DNA of 64,000 bases from a candidate division FCPU426 bacterium (GTDB lineage: Bacteria; Oederibacteriota; Muellerivitia; Muellerivitales; Muellerivitaceae): NCBI GenBank assembly GCA_963847625.1, contig CAWKAR010000025.1:32001-96000 (forward strand), written 5' to 3'. Below, piece after piece: positions 19,309-55,190 of this stretch. How positions within the stretch are numbered: position 1 is the stretch's first letter; each line of letters begins with the position of its first letter. The position numbers were made by a program, and so were the translations under genes. The notes under the pieces are model-generated. The model did no database searches. It worked only from the letters and a program-made list of their open reading frames with translations, and was not told where the DNA came from.

Positions 19309-20180
19309 TCGCCTTTCTCCAGCAACGATTTCAAGTATTGGCCGTAATCGCTTTTTCCCAAGGCCGCCGCTTGCCGTTTTATGTCCGCCTCGCCGATCAA
19401 ACCCAGCCGGAAAGCCACTTCCTCGGGACAGCAAACCATTAAACCCTGCCGTTCCTCGAGGGCCTGGATGAACAGACTGGCTTGAAGCATGGCATTGGGC
19501 GTCCCAGTGTCCAGCCATGCCACCCCTCGGCCCAGTTTTTCAACCCGCAATTCCCCTGATTTAAGGTATTCCTTGTTCAAGTCCGTGATTTCCAACTCTC
19601 CCCGTGCCGAAGGCTTGAGCCGGGCGGCCCGCTCAGGCGCGGATCCGTCGTAAAGGTAAAGCCCCGTCACGGCCCAGGGGGACGGGGCAATCGCGGGTTT
19701 TTCAAGGATGTCACGGATCTTTCCGGAAGAGTCGAATTCAATGACGCCGTAACGTTGGGGGTCCTTGACCTGGTAAGCGAAAACTGTGGCGCCCTTATCG
19801 GCTTTTTTTGCCGCGCCATTTAAATACTCAGGCAAACCTTGCCCATAGAACACGTTATCCCCCAAGGCCAAAGCGCAGGAATCCCCAGCCAAAAAATCCC
19901 GTCCTATCAAAAGAGCCTGGGAAATGCCCTTGGGTTCTGCCTGGACCGCCCAGATGAACTTGATCCCCAGCCAGGACCCGTCTCCCAGAAGACGCTGGAA
20001 ACCCGATTGGTCCTCGGGTGTAGTAATAATCATGATTTTTTTCACTCCGGTCCAAAGAAGCGTGGACAGGGGGTAATAGACCATGGGTTTGTCGTAAAGG
20101 GGCAGGAGTTGTTTGGAGACCCCCTTGGTGACGGGATGCAGGCGCGTCCCGGCTCCTCCCGCTAAAAGAATACCTTTCAT
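19305..20180 (-). CDS. rfbA: Glucose-1-phosphate thymidylyltransferase
   Basis: KGILLAGGAGTRLHP, SKQLLPLYDKPM, SARGELEITD, WLDTGT. Confidence 0.97.
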   Translation of the reverse strand: MKGILLAGGAGTRLHPVTKGVSKQLLPLYDKPMVYYPLSTLLWTGVKKIMIITTPEDQSGFQRLLGDGSWLGIKFIWAVQAEPKGISQALLIGRDFLAGDSCALALGDNVFYGQGLPEYLNGAAKKADKGATVFAYQVKDPQRYGVIEFDSSGKIRDILEKPAIAPSPWAVTGLYLYDGSAPERAARLKPSARGELEITDLNKEYLKSGELRVEKLGRGVAWLDTGTPNAMLQASLFIQALEERQGLMVCCPEEVAFRLGLIGEADIKRQAAALGKSDYGQYLKSLLEKGE

Positions 20181-23012: not shown

Positions 23013-23830
23013 TTCCCGGCAAGCTTGCGGTGAGTTTATCGAACCCGTTCCCGCAGTTCACCGGGTTTACCGCCTTTACCGCCTTCGCCAGGTTTACCGC
23101 CTTTACCGCGCACTGCCCGGTTTACCGCCTTTACCGCCCACCGCCGGATTTACCGCCTTGACCGCGTGCCGCCCGGTTTACCGCCTTTACCGCACACCCC
23201 CAGATTTACCGCCTTTACCGCGTGCCGCCAGGTTTACCGCCTTTACCGCGCACTGCCCGGTTTACCGCCTGGCTTACCGCCTTACCGGCTTACCGCCTTA
23301 CTTACCGCTCTTACCGCTTATTGTTGGACTTACCGCTCAACTTACCGGCTTACCGCCCTACTTACCGGCTTACCGCCCCACTTACCGCCTTAACGGCTTA
23401 CCGCCCTACTTACCGCTCTTACCGCTTATTGTTGGACTTACCGCTCAACTTACCGGCTTACCGCCCCTTATCCCATGCCGGTAGGCGGCACTGCCCATGC
23501 CGGGGCGGTACGGCCCATGCCGGTAGCTGGCACAGCCCATGCCGGTAGGCGGTATCCTCACGCCGGTGGGACCCTCGAGTTCCCCTGGTTCCCGGCCAGC
23601 CTGCGGTGAGCGACCAACGGAAGTCGAACCCGTTCTCGAGTTATCGGGTTATCGGCTTGTTCTCGAATTCCCGGGTTCCCGGCTAGTTATCGGGTTATCG
23701 GCTAGTTCTCGGGTTATCGGCCAGTTCTCGAGTTCCCGGGTTCCCTGCTAGTTCTCAGGTTATCGGGTTCCCAACCGGTTCCCGGGTTATCGGGTTTTTG
23801 ACCAGTTCTCGGGTTCCCGGGTTATCGGCC
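23013..23830. repeat. Composite tandem-repeat array (28-bp, 8-bp, ~22-bp and 8-bp blocks, plus two REP-like hairpins)
   Basis: Read directly: G(G/A)TTTACCGCCTTTACCGC+N9 x7, CTTACCG(C/G)C runs, CCCATGCCGG units x4, GTT(A/C)(T/C)CGG runs. Confidence 0.95.
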
Positions 23831-24128: not shown

Positions 24129-25183
24129 CCCGAGTTCCATAAGTAAGTGCAACACTTAGTGTCTGAAGAAGGCCGCATGAATAGGATATGCGGCTATGAA
24201 AAAGAAATACAAGCATTTAAGCGTTGAAGAAAGAGATCATTTATCCGTCTTGAAAGGAAAGGGTCTTAGCCTTCGAGCAATTTCACGCGCCTTGAAGAGG
24301 TCTCCTTCCACCCTCTCCAGGGAACTCAAGCGCAATGCTCCCCCTATCCGTTCTGGTTATTATCTTTCTCATCGAGCCCATCAACGGTATGTTGACCGCA
24401 ACCAACAACGAGCACGCCGTTTACGCCTGAAAACAAAACGAATTCGTGCCTACGTCCGTCGTCAATTGAAACGAGGCTGGTCTCCAGAACTCATTTCAGG
24501 TCGATTAGGTCACCTACGGCCTAAGCAAACCATTGGTCCTGAAGCTATCTATCAGTGGGTTTATGCTGAAGCCACTGAGCTGATTCCTTGCCTAGTTCGA
24601 CACCACCGGCGACGATTCTCATTTGGCCATAGCCGTAAGCACGCCAAAAACCATATCCCAGGCCGTGTTTCCATCGATAAGCGCTCCGAGATCGCCAATC
24701 AACGCAAGCAATTCGGCCATTGGGAAACCGACACCATGGTCTCTCGTCAGAGTAAAGTTGCTATGCGGGCTCTCGTCGAGCGTCAAAGCCGTTTTTCCAA
24801 GTTGGGAAAGCTCAAACGAAAGACCGCTCGCCAAATGAGTCATAGCCTCAACCGCGCTTTATGCCGCTTCCCTCAAGACGCCCGCCTGAGTCTGACCTAT
24901 GACAACGGAACCGAAAACACCAACCACTTGGAAACCAACCACGTGCTTGGTACAAAATCCTTTTTCTGCGCCCCTTTCCACAGTTGGGAAAAAGGTACGG
25001 TGGAAAATACTATCGGTCTTGTCCGCCGCCATTTGCCTAAAAAGACTGATCTTGCTAAAGTGTCCTTCAAAGAATTCAGGACCATAGAAAGATGGCTCAA
25101 TAACAGGCCCAGGAAATGTTTGGGCTTTAAAACTCCGGCGGAAGTCTTCCGGCGAAGTGTTGCACTTACTCCGTGAATTCGGC
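24129..25183 (+). mobile_element. IS30-family insertion sequence, copy 1 (1055 bp)
   Basis: Imperfect terminal IRs CCCGAGTTCCATAAGTAAGTGCAACACTT / AAGTGTTGCACTTACTCCGTGAATTCGGC; 3-bp target duplication TCT. Confidence 0.96.
24196..25176 (+). CDS. IS30-family transposase
   Basis: YKHLS.EER HTH, WSPELI, GHWETDT, TYDNGTE, PFHSWEKGTVENT, LNNRPRKCLGFKTP. Confidence 0.96.
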   Translation: MKKKYKHLSVEERDHLSVLKGKGLSLRAISRALKRSPSTLSRELKRNAPPIRSGYYLSHRAHQRYVDRNQQRARRLRLKTKRIRAYVRRQLKRGWSPELISGRLGHLRPKQTIGPEAIYQWVYAEATELIPCLVRHHRRRFSFGHSRKHAKNHIPGRVSIDKRSEIANQRKQFGHWETDTMVSRQSKVAMRALVERQSRFSKLGKLKRKTARQMSHSLNRALCRFPQDARLSLTYDNGTENTNHLETNHVLGTKSFFCAPFHSWEKGTVENTIGLVRRHLPKKTDLAKVSFKEFRTIERWLNNRPRKCLGFKTPAEVFRRSVALTP

Positions 25184-29949: not shown

Positions 29950-30202
29950 TAGCCACGGATGCATGGGATTCATGGGATTTAATAAACATGAATATTTAAA
30001 GCCTTTTTTCTTTGGCCAATCTGAGTGCATGCCGAACCTCATTAAAGCTTTCAATGAAAGTTCGGTATAGTACCGATTTCCTTAATTGTTTTATTGTGAA
30101 TCGGCACATCCCCTGAATCTGTGCCGATCATCCATAAAAATTATTGGAGATCGGTACGATACCACCTTCCCTATAATCTTTTTTGAAAGGTGGCATGTGG
30201 CA
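29950..30202. repeat. Dispersed palindromic repeat (paralog of 47441-47537) interrupted by two mini-insertions
   Basis: TAGCCACGGATGCATGGGAT...AATATTTAAAGCCTTTTT..; aligns with the 47.4-kb copy once 30030-30106 and 30122-30195 are removed. Confidence 0.85.
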
Positions 30203-41653: not shown

Positions 41654-42708
41654 GCCGAATTCACGGAGTAAGTGCAACACTTCGCCGGAAGACTTCCGCC
41701 GGAGTTTTAAAGCCCAAACATTTCCTGGGCCTGTTATTGAGCCATCTTTCTATGGTCCTGAATTCTTTGAAGGACACTTTAGCAAGATCAGTCTTTTTAG
41801 GCAAATGGCGGCGGACAAGACCGATAGTATTTTCCACCGTACCTTTTTCCCAACTGTGGAAAGGGGCGCAGAAAAAGGATTTTGTACCAAGCACGTGGTT
41901 GGTTTCCAAGTGGTTGGTGTTTTCGGTTCCGTTGTCATAGGTCAGACTCAGGCGGGCGTCTTGAGGGAAGCGGCATAAAGCGCGGTTGAGGCTATGACTC
42001 ATTTGGCGAGCGGTCTTTCGTTTGAGCTTTCCCAACTTGGAAAAACGGCTTTGACGCTCGACGAGAGCCCGCATAGCAACTTTACTCTGACGAGAGACCA
42101 TGGTGTCGGTTTCCCAATGGCCGAATTGCTTGCGTTGATTGGCGATCTCGGAGCGCTTATCGATGGAAACACGGCCTGGGATATGGTTTTTGGCGTGCTT
42201 ACGGCTATGGCCAAATGAGAATCGTCGCCGGTGGTGTCGAACTAGGCAAGGAATCAGCTCAGTGGCTTCAGCATAAACCCACTGATAGATAGCTTCAGGA
42301 CCAATGGTTTGCTTAGGCCGTAGGTGACCTAATCGACCTGAAATGAGTTCTGGAGACCAGCCTCGTTTCAATTGACGACGGACGTAGGCACGAATTCGTT
42401 TTGTTTTCAGGCGTAAACGGCGTGCTCGTTGTTGGTTGCGGTCAACATACCGTTGATGGGCTCGATGAGAAAGATAATAACCAGAACGGATAGGGGGAGC
42501 ATTGCGCTTGAGTTCCCTGGAGAGGGTGGAAGGAGACCTCTTCAAGGCGCGTGAAATTGCTCGAAGGCTAAGACCCTTTCCTTTCAAGACGGATAAATGA
42601 TCTCTTTCTTCAACGCTTAAATGCTTGTATTTCTTTTTCATAGCCGCATATCCTATTCATGCGGCCTTCTTCAGACACTAAGTGTTGCACTTACTTATGG
42701 AACTCGGG
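41654..42708 (-). mobile_element. IS30-family insertion sequence, copy 2 (1055 bp)
   Basis: Reverse complement of copy 1; 3-bp target duplication GGT (41651-53 and 42709-11). Confidence 0.96.
41661..42641 (-). CDS. IS30-family transposase
   Basis: Protein identical to 24196-25176 in the ORF track. Confidence 0.96.
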   Translation of the reverse strand: MKKKYKHLSVEERDHLSVLKGKGLSLRAISRALKRSPSTLSRELKRNAPPIRSGYYLSHRAHQRYVDRNQQRARRLRLKTKRIRAYVRRQLKRGWSPELISGRLGHLRPKQTIGPEAIYQWVYAEATELIPCLVRHHRRRFSFGHSRKHAKNHIPGRVSIDKRSEIANQRKQFGHWETDTMVSRQSKVAMRALVERQSRFSKLGKLKRKTARQMSHSLNRALCRFPQDARLSLTYDNGTENTNHLETNHVLGTKSFFCAPFHSWEKGTVENTIGLVRRHLPKKTDLAKVSFKEFRTIERWLNNRPRKCLGFKTPAEVFRRSVALTP

Positions 42709-47440: not shown

Positions 47441-47537
47441 TAGCCACGGATGCATGGGATAAATGGGATTTAATAAACACAAATATTTAAAGCCTTTTTC
47501 TTTGCTTATCTGAATGCATCCCCTGAATCCGTGGCTA
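47441..47537. repeat. Dispersed palindromic (MITE/REP-like) repeat, uninterrupted copy
   Basis: Perfect 11-bp ends TAGCCACGGAT ... ATCCGTGGCTA; paralog at 29950. Confidence 0.85.
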
Positions 47538-54135: not shown

Positions 54136-55190
54136 CCCGAGTTCCATAAGTAAGTGCAACACTTAGTGTCTGAAGAAGGCCGCATGAATAGGATATGCGG
54201 CTATGAAAAAGAAATACAAGCATTTAAGCGTTGAAGAAAGAGATCATTTATCCGTCTTGAAAGGAAAGGGTCTTAGCCTTCGAGCAATTTCACGCGCCTT
54301 GAAGAGGTCTCCTTCCACCCTCTCCAGGGAACTCAAGCGCAATGCTCCCCCTATCCGTTCTGGTTATTATCTTTCTCATCGAGCCCATCAACGGTATGTT
54401 GACCGCAACCAACAACGAGCACGCCGTTTACGCCTGAAAACAAAACGAATTCGTGCCTACGTCCGTCGTCAATTGAAACGAGGCTGGTCTCCAGAACTCA
54501 TTTCAGGTCGATTAGGTCACCTACGGCCTAAGCAAACCATTGGTCCTGAAGCTATCTATCAGTGGGTTTATGCTGAAGCCACTGAGCTGATTCCTTGCCT
54601 AGTTCGACACCACCGGCGACGATTCTCATTTGGCCATAGCCGTAAGCACGCCAAAAACCATATCCCAGGCCGTGTTTCCATCGATAAGCGCTCCGAGATC
54701 GCCAATCAACGCAAGCAATTCGGCCATTGGGAAACCGACACCATGGTCTCTCGTCAGAGTAAAGTGGCTATGCGGGCTCTCGTCGAGCGTCAAAGCCGTT
54801 TTTCCAAGTTGGGAAAGCTCAAACGAAAGACCGCTCGCCAAATGAGTCATAGCCTCAACCGCGCTTTATGCCGCTTCCCTCAAGACGCCCGCCTGAGTCT
54901 GACCTATGACAACGGAACCGAAAACACCAACCACTTGGAAACCAACCACGTGCTTGGTACAAAATCCTTTTTCTGCGCCCCTTTCCACAGTTGGGAAAAA
55001 GGTACGGTGGAAAATACTATCGGTCTTGTCCGCCGCCATTTGCCTAAAAAGACTGATCTTGCTAAAGTGTCCTTCAAAGAATTCAGGACCATAGAAAGAT
55101 GGCTCAATAACAGGCCCAGGAAATGTTTGGGCTTTAAAACTCCGGCGGAAGTCTTCCGGCGAAGTGTTGCACTTACTCCGTGAATTCGGC
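54136..55190 (+). mobile_element. IS30-family insertion sequence, copy 3 (1055 bp)
   Basis: Same ends as copy 1; one silent difference noticed (GTG vs GTT, Val); flanks CAT/TAT do not match perfectly. Confidence 0.96.
54203..55183 (+). CDS. IS30-family transposase
   Basis: Protein identical to the other two copies. Confidence 0.96.
   Translation: MKKKYKHLSVEERDHLSVLKGKGLSLRAISRALKRSPSTLSRELKRNAPPIRSGYYLSHRAHQRYVDRNQQRARRLRLKTKRIRAYVRRQLKRGWSPELISGRLGHLRPKQTIGPEAIYQWVYAEATELIPCLVRHHRRRFSFGHSRKHAKNHIPGRVSIDKRSEIANQRKQFGHWETDTMVSRQSKVAMRALVERQSRFSKLGKLKRKTARQMSHSLNRALCRFPQDARLSLTYDNGTENTNHLETNHVLGTKSFFCAPFHSWEKGTVENTIGLVRRHLPKKTDLAKVSFKEFRTIERWLNNRPRKCLGFKTPAEVFRRSVALTP

Follow-up and report, generated by a model that had tools for sequence, protein, structure and literature searches.

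A double-hairpin mini-element with a central linker that complements its flanking dinucleotide, confined to one uncultured bacterial family

Two inserts in a palindromic repeat between gatC and a helicase gene

The window, that is the whole stretch of 64,000 nucleotides analysed here, contains a palindromic repeat in the gap between gatC and a gene for a PcrA/UvrD-type helicase, and this host repeat is interrupted twice (Table 1). The interruptions are two non-coding inserts of the same kind on opposite strands, element A (30030-30106, 77 bp, as 38+3+36) and element B (30122-30195, 74 bp, as 35+3+36). Both lie where a sequence-only reading of the window had placed them, together with their 2-bp duplications, and their fold z-scores range from -3.4 to -4.4 on both strands. 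When A, B and one copy of each dinucleotide are excised, the host-repeat end takes the form that it has in the uninterrupted copy of Table 1, which the same reading had regarded as the empty allele within the window. The host end is indeed restored, but the reconstructed host differs from that copy by two mismatches, one of them CG for TG at the site of B, and because CG replaces TG there, the uninterrupted copy is a paralogous empty allele rather than the exact pre-insertion one.

Table 1. Features of the A/B locus and of the uninterrupted host-repeat copy (positions in the window)
Feature	Position	Strand	Basis
Host palindromic repeat, right arm interrupted twice	29950..30201	.	Sequence; about 55 copies matched genome-wide
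Element A core dinucleotide, left copy (CA on +, TG on -)	30028..30029	-	Sequence
Element A unit 2 (family orientation), 38-nt imperfect hairpin	30030..30067	-	Sequence, copy search, alignment
Element A 3-nt linker, putative guide, outer bases complement core	30068..30070	-	Linker/flank covariation
Element A unit 1 (family orientation), 36-nt imperfect hairpin	30071..30106	-	Sequence, copy search, alignment
Element A core dinucleotide, right copy (CA on +)	30107..30108	-	Sequence
Element B core dinucleotide TG, left copy	30120..30121	+	Sequence
Element B unit 1, 35-nt imperfect hairpin	30122..30156	+	Sequence, folding
Element B 3-nt linker, putative guide	30157..30159	+	Linker/flank covariation
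Element B unit 2, 36-nt imperfect hairpin	30160..30195	+	Sequence, folding
Element B core dinucleotide TG, right copy	30196..30197	+	Sequence
Uninterrupted paralogous host-repeat copy (empty allele)	47441..47537	.	Sequence comparison

A comparison of orthologous loci, which had also been proposed, could be made with G001, a genome of the same genus, in which the gatC-pcrA gap (L292, G001:C12) carries other nested palindromic repeats and neither the host repeat nor the element. Since the nested repeat set of this sister genome is a different one, the gap is apparently a hotspot of turnover. Elsewhere in the window there are three IS30-family copies (24129-25183, 41654-42708 and 54136-55190), alike over 1,055 bp and with 3-bp duplications, from a family with 38 copies in the genome; another IS30 family is represented by about 20 copies. 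At 23058-23820, units of 28 nt and of 19/8 nt form degenerate tandem arrays.

Copy number, fold and linker rule of the family

The double-hairpin family to which A and B belong has 74 strict and about 100 relaxed copies in the source genome (G000). A structural search of this genome returned 84 double-hairpin matches, 75 of them with a 3-nt gap, while three locally shuffled genomes gave 0, 1 and 0 matches of any gap; the family is not a chance pattern. A stricter search retained 103 copies and a looser one returned 134 matches, a few of them false (the shuffles gave 1 and 3). The structural search, of a kind suggested by the sequence-only reading, yielded 74 distinct copies with a gap of 3, among which the flanking 2 bp, of the type TG/CA, CG or TA, are identical in 68 and a 3- or 4-bp flanking repeat occurs in none. 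Only 5 of 92 copies lie inside ORFs of 120 or more codons, although such ORFs cover 87% of the genome.

With regard to the taxonomic range, the junction pattern is present in 26 of the 30 other genomes of the bacterial family (the GTDB family of the source) and stays at control level in 68 genomes from elsewhere in the order and phylum. A covariance model for which A and B were part of the input matches the element family genome-wide and, with 47 candidates scored per genome, detects elements in 28 of the 30 other family genomes, the two without them being G017 and G008; under the same scoring, it gives only weak matches outside the family (E 2e-5 to 1e-3, in 3 of 68 genomes). In these searches of relatives, which had been proposed, the element is confined to one uncultured bacterial family, with no convincing presence elsewhere. 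Viral contigs gave 1, 10 and 0 matches, none of which is a genuine element, and some matches from genome collections under other taxon labels are chance matches in coding DNA. One matching record (L016) is labelled Candidatus Firestonebacteria. Furthermore, L033, a contig with an element from a genome assigned by its label to a different phylum, carries genes 60-72% identical to those of G000 and is probably mis-binned; L038 is possibly a similar case.

Each copy consists of the core dinucleotide XY, unit 1, a 3-nt linker, unit 2 and XY again, with two inverted units of about 36 bp, the second similar to the first when reverse-complemented. The mean column identity over 59 aligned copies is 69%. 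This does not agree with the earlier proposals that the hairpins share only their termini and that the element is defined by architecture rather than sequence, since the family has both a consensus and covarying stems. At stem positions 5-8, pairing within the unit holds in 84-98% of 199 distinct copies and end-to-end pairing in 10-62%. Two-sided changes occur at 14 of 21 pairs of the 59-row alignment, a level reached in 0 of 500 shuffles, in a test whose result is inflated by related rows and whose structure was set from the same alignment. Position 2 is non-Watson-Crick in about 90% of the copies, with a conserved G-T in unit 1 and A-C in unit 2, and either strand presents one G-T in its first hairpin and one A-C in its second. 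There is one bulged base per unit after about 9 pairs, the loops are long and AT-rich, and the stems reach up to and into the core dinucleotide. When circularised, the copies fold as two hairpins in 175 of 194 and 173 of 194 cases on the two strands, and both core pairs together with a bulged middle linker base are found in the minimum-energy fold of 103 and 143 of 194, respectively.

The unit also occurs in other arrangements. Head-to-tail arrays, in which the core dinucleotide joins the copies, contain as many as 8 identical ones in G001; in one array, two element variants are combined. Larger variants, including one with a CG core, carry extra hairpins just after the linker and keep the core rule described below. 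Four-hairpin variants of about 143 nt that keep this rule are located at G000:C21:16260-16402, 19640-19782 and 25000-25141, at C3:148964-149100 and in L044. Single-hairpin hybrids between core dinucleotides, at G000:C26:77026 and C3:42935, apparently arose by recombination through the loops.

A feature that goes beyond the sequence-only reading is that linker bases 1 and 3 complement the flanking dinucleotide. For a pyrimidine-purine core XY, the linker is composed of the complement of Y, any base and the complement of X: TG goes with C-n-A, CG with C-n-G, TA with T-n-A and CA, which is TG on the other strand, with T-n-G. Pairing of the flanks with linker bases 1 and 3 alike is seen in 70 of the 74 strict copies, whereas 10,000 permutations averaged 51.3 and never exceeded 61. 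In a set of 218 distinct copies, drawn from G000 and fetched loci, scored without the linker pair and including loci picked for unusual linkers as well as a few false matches, the match is full in 165 copies of TG type, 13 of CG and 7 of TA, and 33 deviate. The CG and TA core types may each stem from few events. Read on one strand only, the commonest linker reading is ATAG (92 of the 218), followed by ATCG (55) and ATTG (24).

Each of the four flank positions follows the linker in 205-207 of these 218 copies. As the target copy and the element copy both follow it, the position of the cut is unreadable from the flanks; one-sided mismatches show no preference for inner over outer flank bases and fit a cut in the middle of the core as well as a duplication. 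At the host site of element B, the empty alleles have CG in 51 cases and TG in 9, and the filled alleles, which are not independent copies, have TG/TG in 8 cases, CG/CG in 3 and mixed flanks in 2, each following its own linker. Mostly mixed flanks would be expected here from an element that disregarded the target base. The complementarity between linker and flanks makes a selected core more likely than a random duplication of the target, and the covariation is consistent, on sequence comparison, with a choice of the predicted cleavage dinucleotide by complementarity to a tag, for which the linker would act as the guide.

Target sites and spread

Insertion of the element adds exactly one pyrimidine-purine dinucleotide XY: among 92 copies with equal flanks, 58 have an empty counterpart elsewhere in the genome that contains the dinucleotide exactly once, and no counterpart with zero or two was found for any of the 92. 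By their flanks, 194 copies can be sorted into 70 target-site families, and the 92 copies of G000 into 35. The largest of them correspond to positions in several unrelated palindromic repeats and to the element's own junction; start codons, where the last A of the element and TG rebuild an ATG, and the 3' end of tRNA-Leu are further targets. The sequence-only reading had described a tiny, non-autonomous mobile element that is flanked by a 2-bp duplication and lies inside a palindromic repeat. That it is such an element is very probable, and insertion into palindromic repeats is frequent, but the suggestion that it targets another repeat family was too narrow given the range of sites.

No strong flank consensus appears beyond the dinucleotide. 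In folded empty sites the target XY is not preferentially paired (31%, as compared with 44% of controls), and the folding energy is slightly lower (p 0.007, for sites that are non-independent). The orientation of the copies shows no strand bias relative to GC skew (21:19), with local GC skew on draft contigs serving as a rough proxy.

Some of the insertion sites have features of their own. At G000:C3:95330-95530, two tandem elements lie at the tRNA-Leu 3' end, beside a phage-type integrase gene, and rebuild the tRNA end through first bases that are unusual for the family. Inserts or arrays at start codons (G000:C63:93590-93830, C45:30-270; L024, L026, L049, L327, L328, L331) precede genes that include those for a MazE-like antitoxin and a purL-like product, again with a rebuilt ATG. 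A GGAG ribosome site is present within the hairpin in 4 of 18 start-codon inserts and in 6 of 135 others (p 0.018), and such inserts could affect expression. A family of ORFs of 500-580 aa with no assigned function recurs beside elements (G000:C3:26082-27833, C37:144-1682; L150).

Copies also seem to travel with their surroundings. On a tree of 55 host repeats, 6 changes are required to place the six that are filled at one site, and shuffling of the labels, which are incomplete for filled hosts, gives no higher number; hosts scattered in this way fit repeated gain or loss, and gene conversion as well. The near-identical copies of G044 and G006 also have near-identical host flanks, so many copies may not be fresh insertions, and part of the copy number probably results from passive copying along with host repeats. 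The same may hold for the locus described here. Elements A and B, which had been called independent, do differ in sub-lineage and in site, but both sub-lineages turn up again at these host positions in other places, and the locus may therefore have received both elements by copying.

Candidate enzymes and mechanism

The sequence-only reading had noted no mobilising enzyme nearby and no described element to which the inserts could be assigned, and both statements hold: no gene recurs near the elements, clustering of neighbouring genes gave accessory genes only, and no catalogued match was found. The longer copies enclosing a transposase, HUH or nuclease gene that it had proposed to look for did not turn up in G000 or the fetched loci, nor did gene-containing versions of any other kind. 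Y1 HUH genes are present in 22 of 31 family genomes. A Y1 match is absent from G021, G004 and G019, which are 98-99% complete, despite 46, 28 and 34 covariance-model hits, respectively, with 47 candidates scored per genome. Where the flanks of Y1 genes were read, they carry IS200-type hairpins or their own TIRYT-type inverted repeats, as described for Y1 elements in PMC6006769 and PMC3733652, and no element unit was matched in the 30 Y1 loci examined; two TIRYT genes of G001 have elements nearby, outside the TIRYT ends.

Other candidates were considered and rejected. The ends of IS30 look faintly like those of the element, but IS30 makes 3-bp duplications at AT-rich sites, and in a survey of the multi-copy IS of G000 the ends of IS3, IS1380, IS481-like, IS256, IS4, IS21 and both IS30 families differ where readable. 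The 14 IS110 copies of G000 have other ends, and IS110 occurs in 1 of 5 element-rich genomes. Serine recombinases are present in 12 of 31 family genomes and were not found in the element-rich G016, G044 and G006. No integron integrase exceeds the TIGR02249 cut-off in G000, and its tyrosine integrases whose flanks were read either belong to a RIT trio or adjoin tRNA genes. Single genes of the GxxExxY and GIY-YIG types adjoin host repeats, not elements. A profile for IS91-type Y2 enzymes was silent in all 31 family genomes (0 of 31), but its control was silent too, and the result carries no weight. G000 also has two reverse transcriptase matches.

Several observations concern these genes themselves. 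Most copies of a 368-aa IS110 end right at a TIRYT Y1 terminal repeat motif (G000:C24:98797-102617, C39:21492-23889), a position which suggests that this IS110 may target TIRYT Y1 ends. Seven intact paralogous integrases, 57-67% identical, are found in G000 (C3, C4, C30, C36, C52, C56 and C60), and those with flanks read lie next to tRNA genes, after a small HTH-like ORF. The single Xer-like tyrosine recombinase gene of the family has an 11-6-11 palindrome upstream in 26 of 28 loci, presumably the dif site, with arms that change in a compensated way between genomes (G000:C60:99600-101000; L177-L206); the gene is flanked by two inverted copies of a second conserved motif of about 36 bp, and a palindrome similar to the upstream one lies at G000:C55:22825.

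The reading that we prefer is that of a REPIN/REP-dimer-like element which would move as folded single-stranded DNA, with the linker as a guide and with an HUH-type enzyme provided in trans; to this mechanism as a whole we give an even chance. On one strand, each unit would fold back, with a stem extending one base into XY, and the enzyme would cut at XY on both sides to release a single-stranded circle of about 76 nt. The circle would fold as a dumbbell with one bulged base opposite XY and would be rejoined into any tolerated XY able to pair with the linker, including the element's own junction, from which arrays would result. The enzyme is probably of the HUH type (Y1, REP-transposase-like). 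A double-stranded circle of 76 bp would be badly strained, and a single-stranded intermediate is therefore favoured.

This reading draws on what has been described for REP systems. For group 3 TnpA-REP in vitro, positions 2 and 4 of the tetranucleotide 5' of the REP stem choose the CA cut site, and altering these positions of the tag retargets cleavage (PMC8266576); the linker obeys the same skip-one rule. REPINs (PMC3116915; RAREFAN preprint, bioRxiv 10.1101/2022.05.22.493013) and REP dimers, which can be tail-to-tail, some with 1-2 bp spacers and some inside other palindromes (PMC3733652), share with the element a non-autonomous intergenic doublet of two nested inverted palindromes that recurs as one multi-copy unit, a lineage-restricted distribution, tandem arrays and insertion into other palindromes (PMC3116915, PMC3733652), as well as a short motif 5' of the stem that complements a dinucleotide (PMC8266576). 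In contrast to REPINs, the element has one shared central 3-nt guide that varies with the core, stems that run into the core dinucleotide and long, AT-rich loops. A GTAG (or GYAG/GGAG/CGTC) tag does not precede each palindrome, the canonical GTAG occurring once in 218 copies, and no cognate RAYT gene flanked by the repeat was found among the 30 Y1 loci. Because this tag and this gene are lacking, the element is not classed as a REPIN, although it would work like a REPIN with a built-in guide. With IS200/IS605 and derivatives it has in common hairpin ends, a choice of site by element-internal pairing and a predicted single-stranded circle (PMC8266576, PMC6006769). As far as IS608 is described there, it has a guide for each end, subterminal hairpins, strand specificity and a lagging-strand preference, whereas the element has one central linker, the dinucleotide on both sides and no strand bias, on the rough proxy given above, and its ends are unlike the IS200 hairpins of the lineage. 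No description of the element was found in the literature searched, although a related repeat may stand in the family tables of PMC3733652 and PMC6006769; it is a real, family-restricted and apparently undescribed mini mobile element.

Several observations weigh against the preferred reading, among them the lack of a recurring gene nearby and of a gene-containing version, the presence of Y1 in only part of the family, with other ends in the readable flanks, and the even orientation of the copies, unlike that of IS200/IS605. The target XY is not preferentially paired on folding, the full bulged-core fold is that of minimum energy in only part of the circles, GTAG is rare, one-sided mismatches favour neither inner nor outer flank bases, and the copies of G044 and G006 share their host flanks. 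The same element and guide logic could be served by an enzyme of the host that is not of the HUH type or is of a kind not yet recognised, and to which the dumbbell would be a duplex site with a 2-bp core; only one strand would be exchanged, in the manner of integrons acting on attC. We consider this unlikely, though deserving of real weight. The family-wide yet family-limited spread without a linked gene agrees with vertical inheritance of the enzyme, mismatches in the fold are conserved and each arm has one bulged base, the linker junction, when read on the opposite strand, repeats the circle junction in degenerate form plus one extra base, and Y1 genes are missing in several near-complete genomes that bear elements. 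As with attC sites and Xer-exploiting elements, the substrate is apparently a single-strand fold with extrahelical bases, and head-to-tail arrays are formed. Yet the element carries no cargo gene, its ends lack the attC core motif with which they were compared, and searches of G000 and the family genomes brought out no candidate, with integron integrases, serine recombinases and IS110 distributed as given above. Apart from Xer, which occurs in 30 of 31, no recombinase was found in nearly all family genomes; Xer is also the sole tyrosine recombinase match in the element-rich G044, and the arms of its upstream palindrome loosely resemble the linker junction. That this single core enzyme moves the element, as it does Xer-exploiting ones, is nevertheless quite improbable: on the palindrome matrix, where real sites reach 26.3, the units score -9.7 and the circle junction between -37 and -64, so that the element is not dif-like on this measure, which takes the presumed dif site as its standard. 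Moreover, the motif flanking the Xer gene does not match the elements, and Xer exchange, which spans a 6-bp spacer, would lead to more than two shared end bases, whereas 0 of 74 copies share 3.

The ends of the element, TG...CA, its overall form of an imperfect inverted repeat and the one extra dinucleotide would also suit an ordinary DDE-transposase MITE with imperfect TG-starting TIRs and a true 2-bp duplication, in which the linker match would be a by-product of palindrome correction. ERIC, Correia and RUP MITEs are likewise short and non-coding, with imperfect TIRs and a 2-bp flanking repeat; those have a fixed TA and an IS630-like partner, whereas the core of the element is TG, CG or TA and tracks an internal linker. 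This explanation appears improbable, as no multi-copy IS checked in G000 combines matching terminal repeats with the duplication length, the spacer is fixed at 3 nt and the stems covary within units, not end-to-end. Palindrome correction is itself unlikely, because it would have to pass the mismatch at position 2, which adjoins the linker pair and stays uncorrected. Still less probable is an element with no mobility of its own at present, spread by gene conversion, hitch-hiking with host repeats and slippage in arrays. Sub-lineages keep to particular host positions across genomes and arrays contain identical copies, but the many target families, unique start codons and the tRNA end among them, argue against it, as do the filled hosts scattered on the host-repeat tree, with the reservation that labels are incomplete and that gene conversion scatters too. 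The covarying stems might recall a structured RNA or an RNA-mediated element, which is hardly probable at all, since the G-T/A-C wobble pattern does not mark a strand, Rfam has no match (best E 0.62) and the precise empty alleles indicate DNA insertion. A wholly new minimal programmable element, in which a 76-nt single-stranded dumbbell with a linker that programs the target dinucleotide depends on a vertically inherited enzyme outside all tested transposase and recombinase classes, seems rather unlikely.

The spread of REP-type repeats is not yet understood, and what has been shown of guide-directed cleavage comes mostly from mutation of the guide in vitro. The element family described here provides natural covariation between guide and target, with three core types, dozens of empty alleles, arrays and larger branched variants. 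Its unit is short enough for whole synthesis, and the cut position, circle formation and retargeting would be directly testable once the enzyme is known. If this enzyme is not a Y1 transposase, it would represent a new single-strand recombination system.
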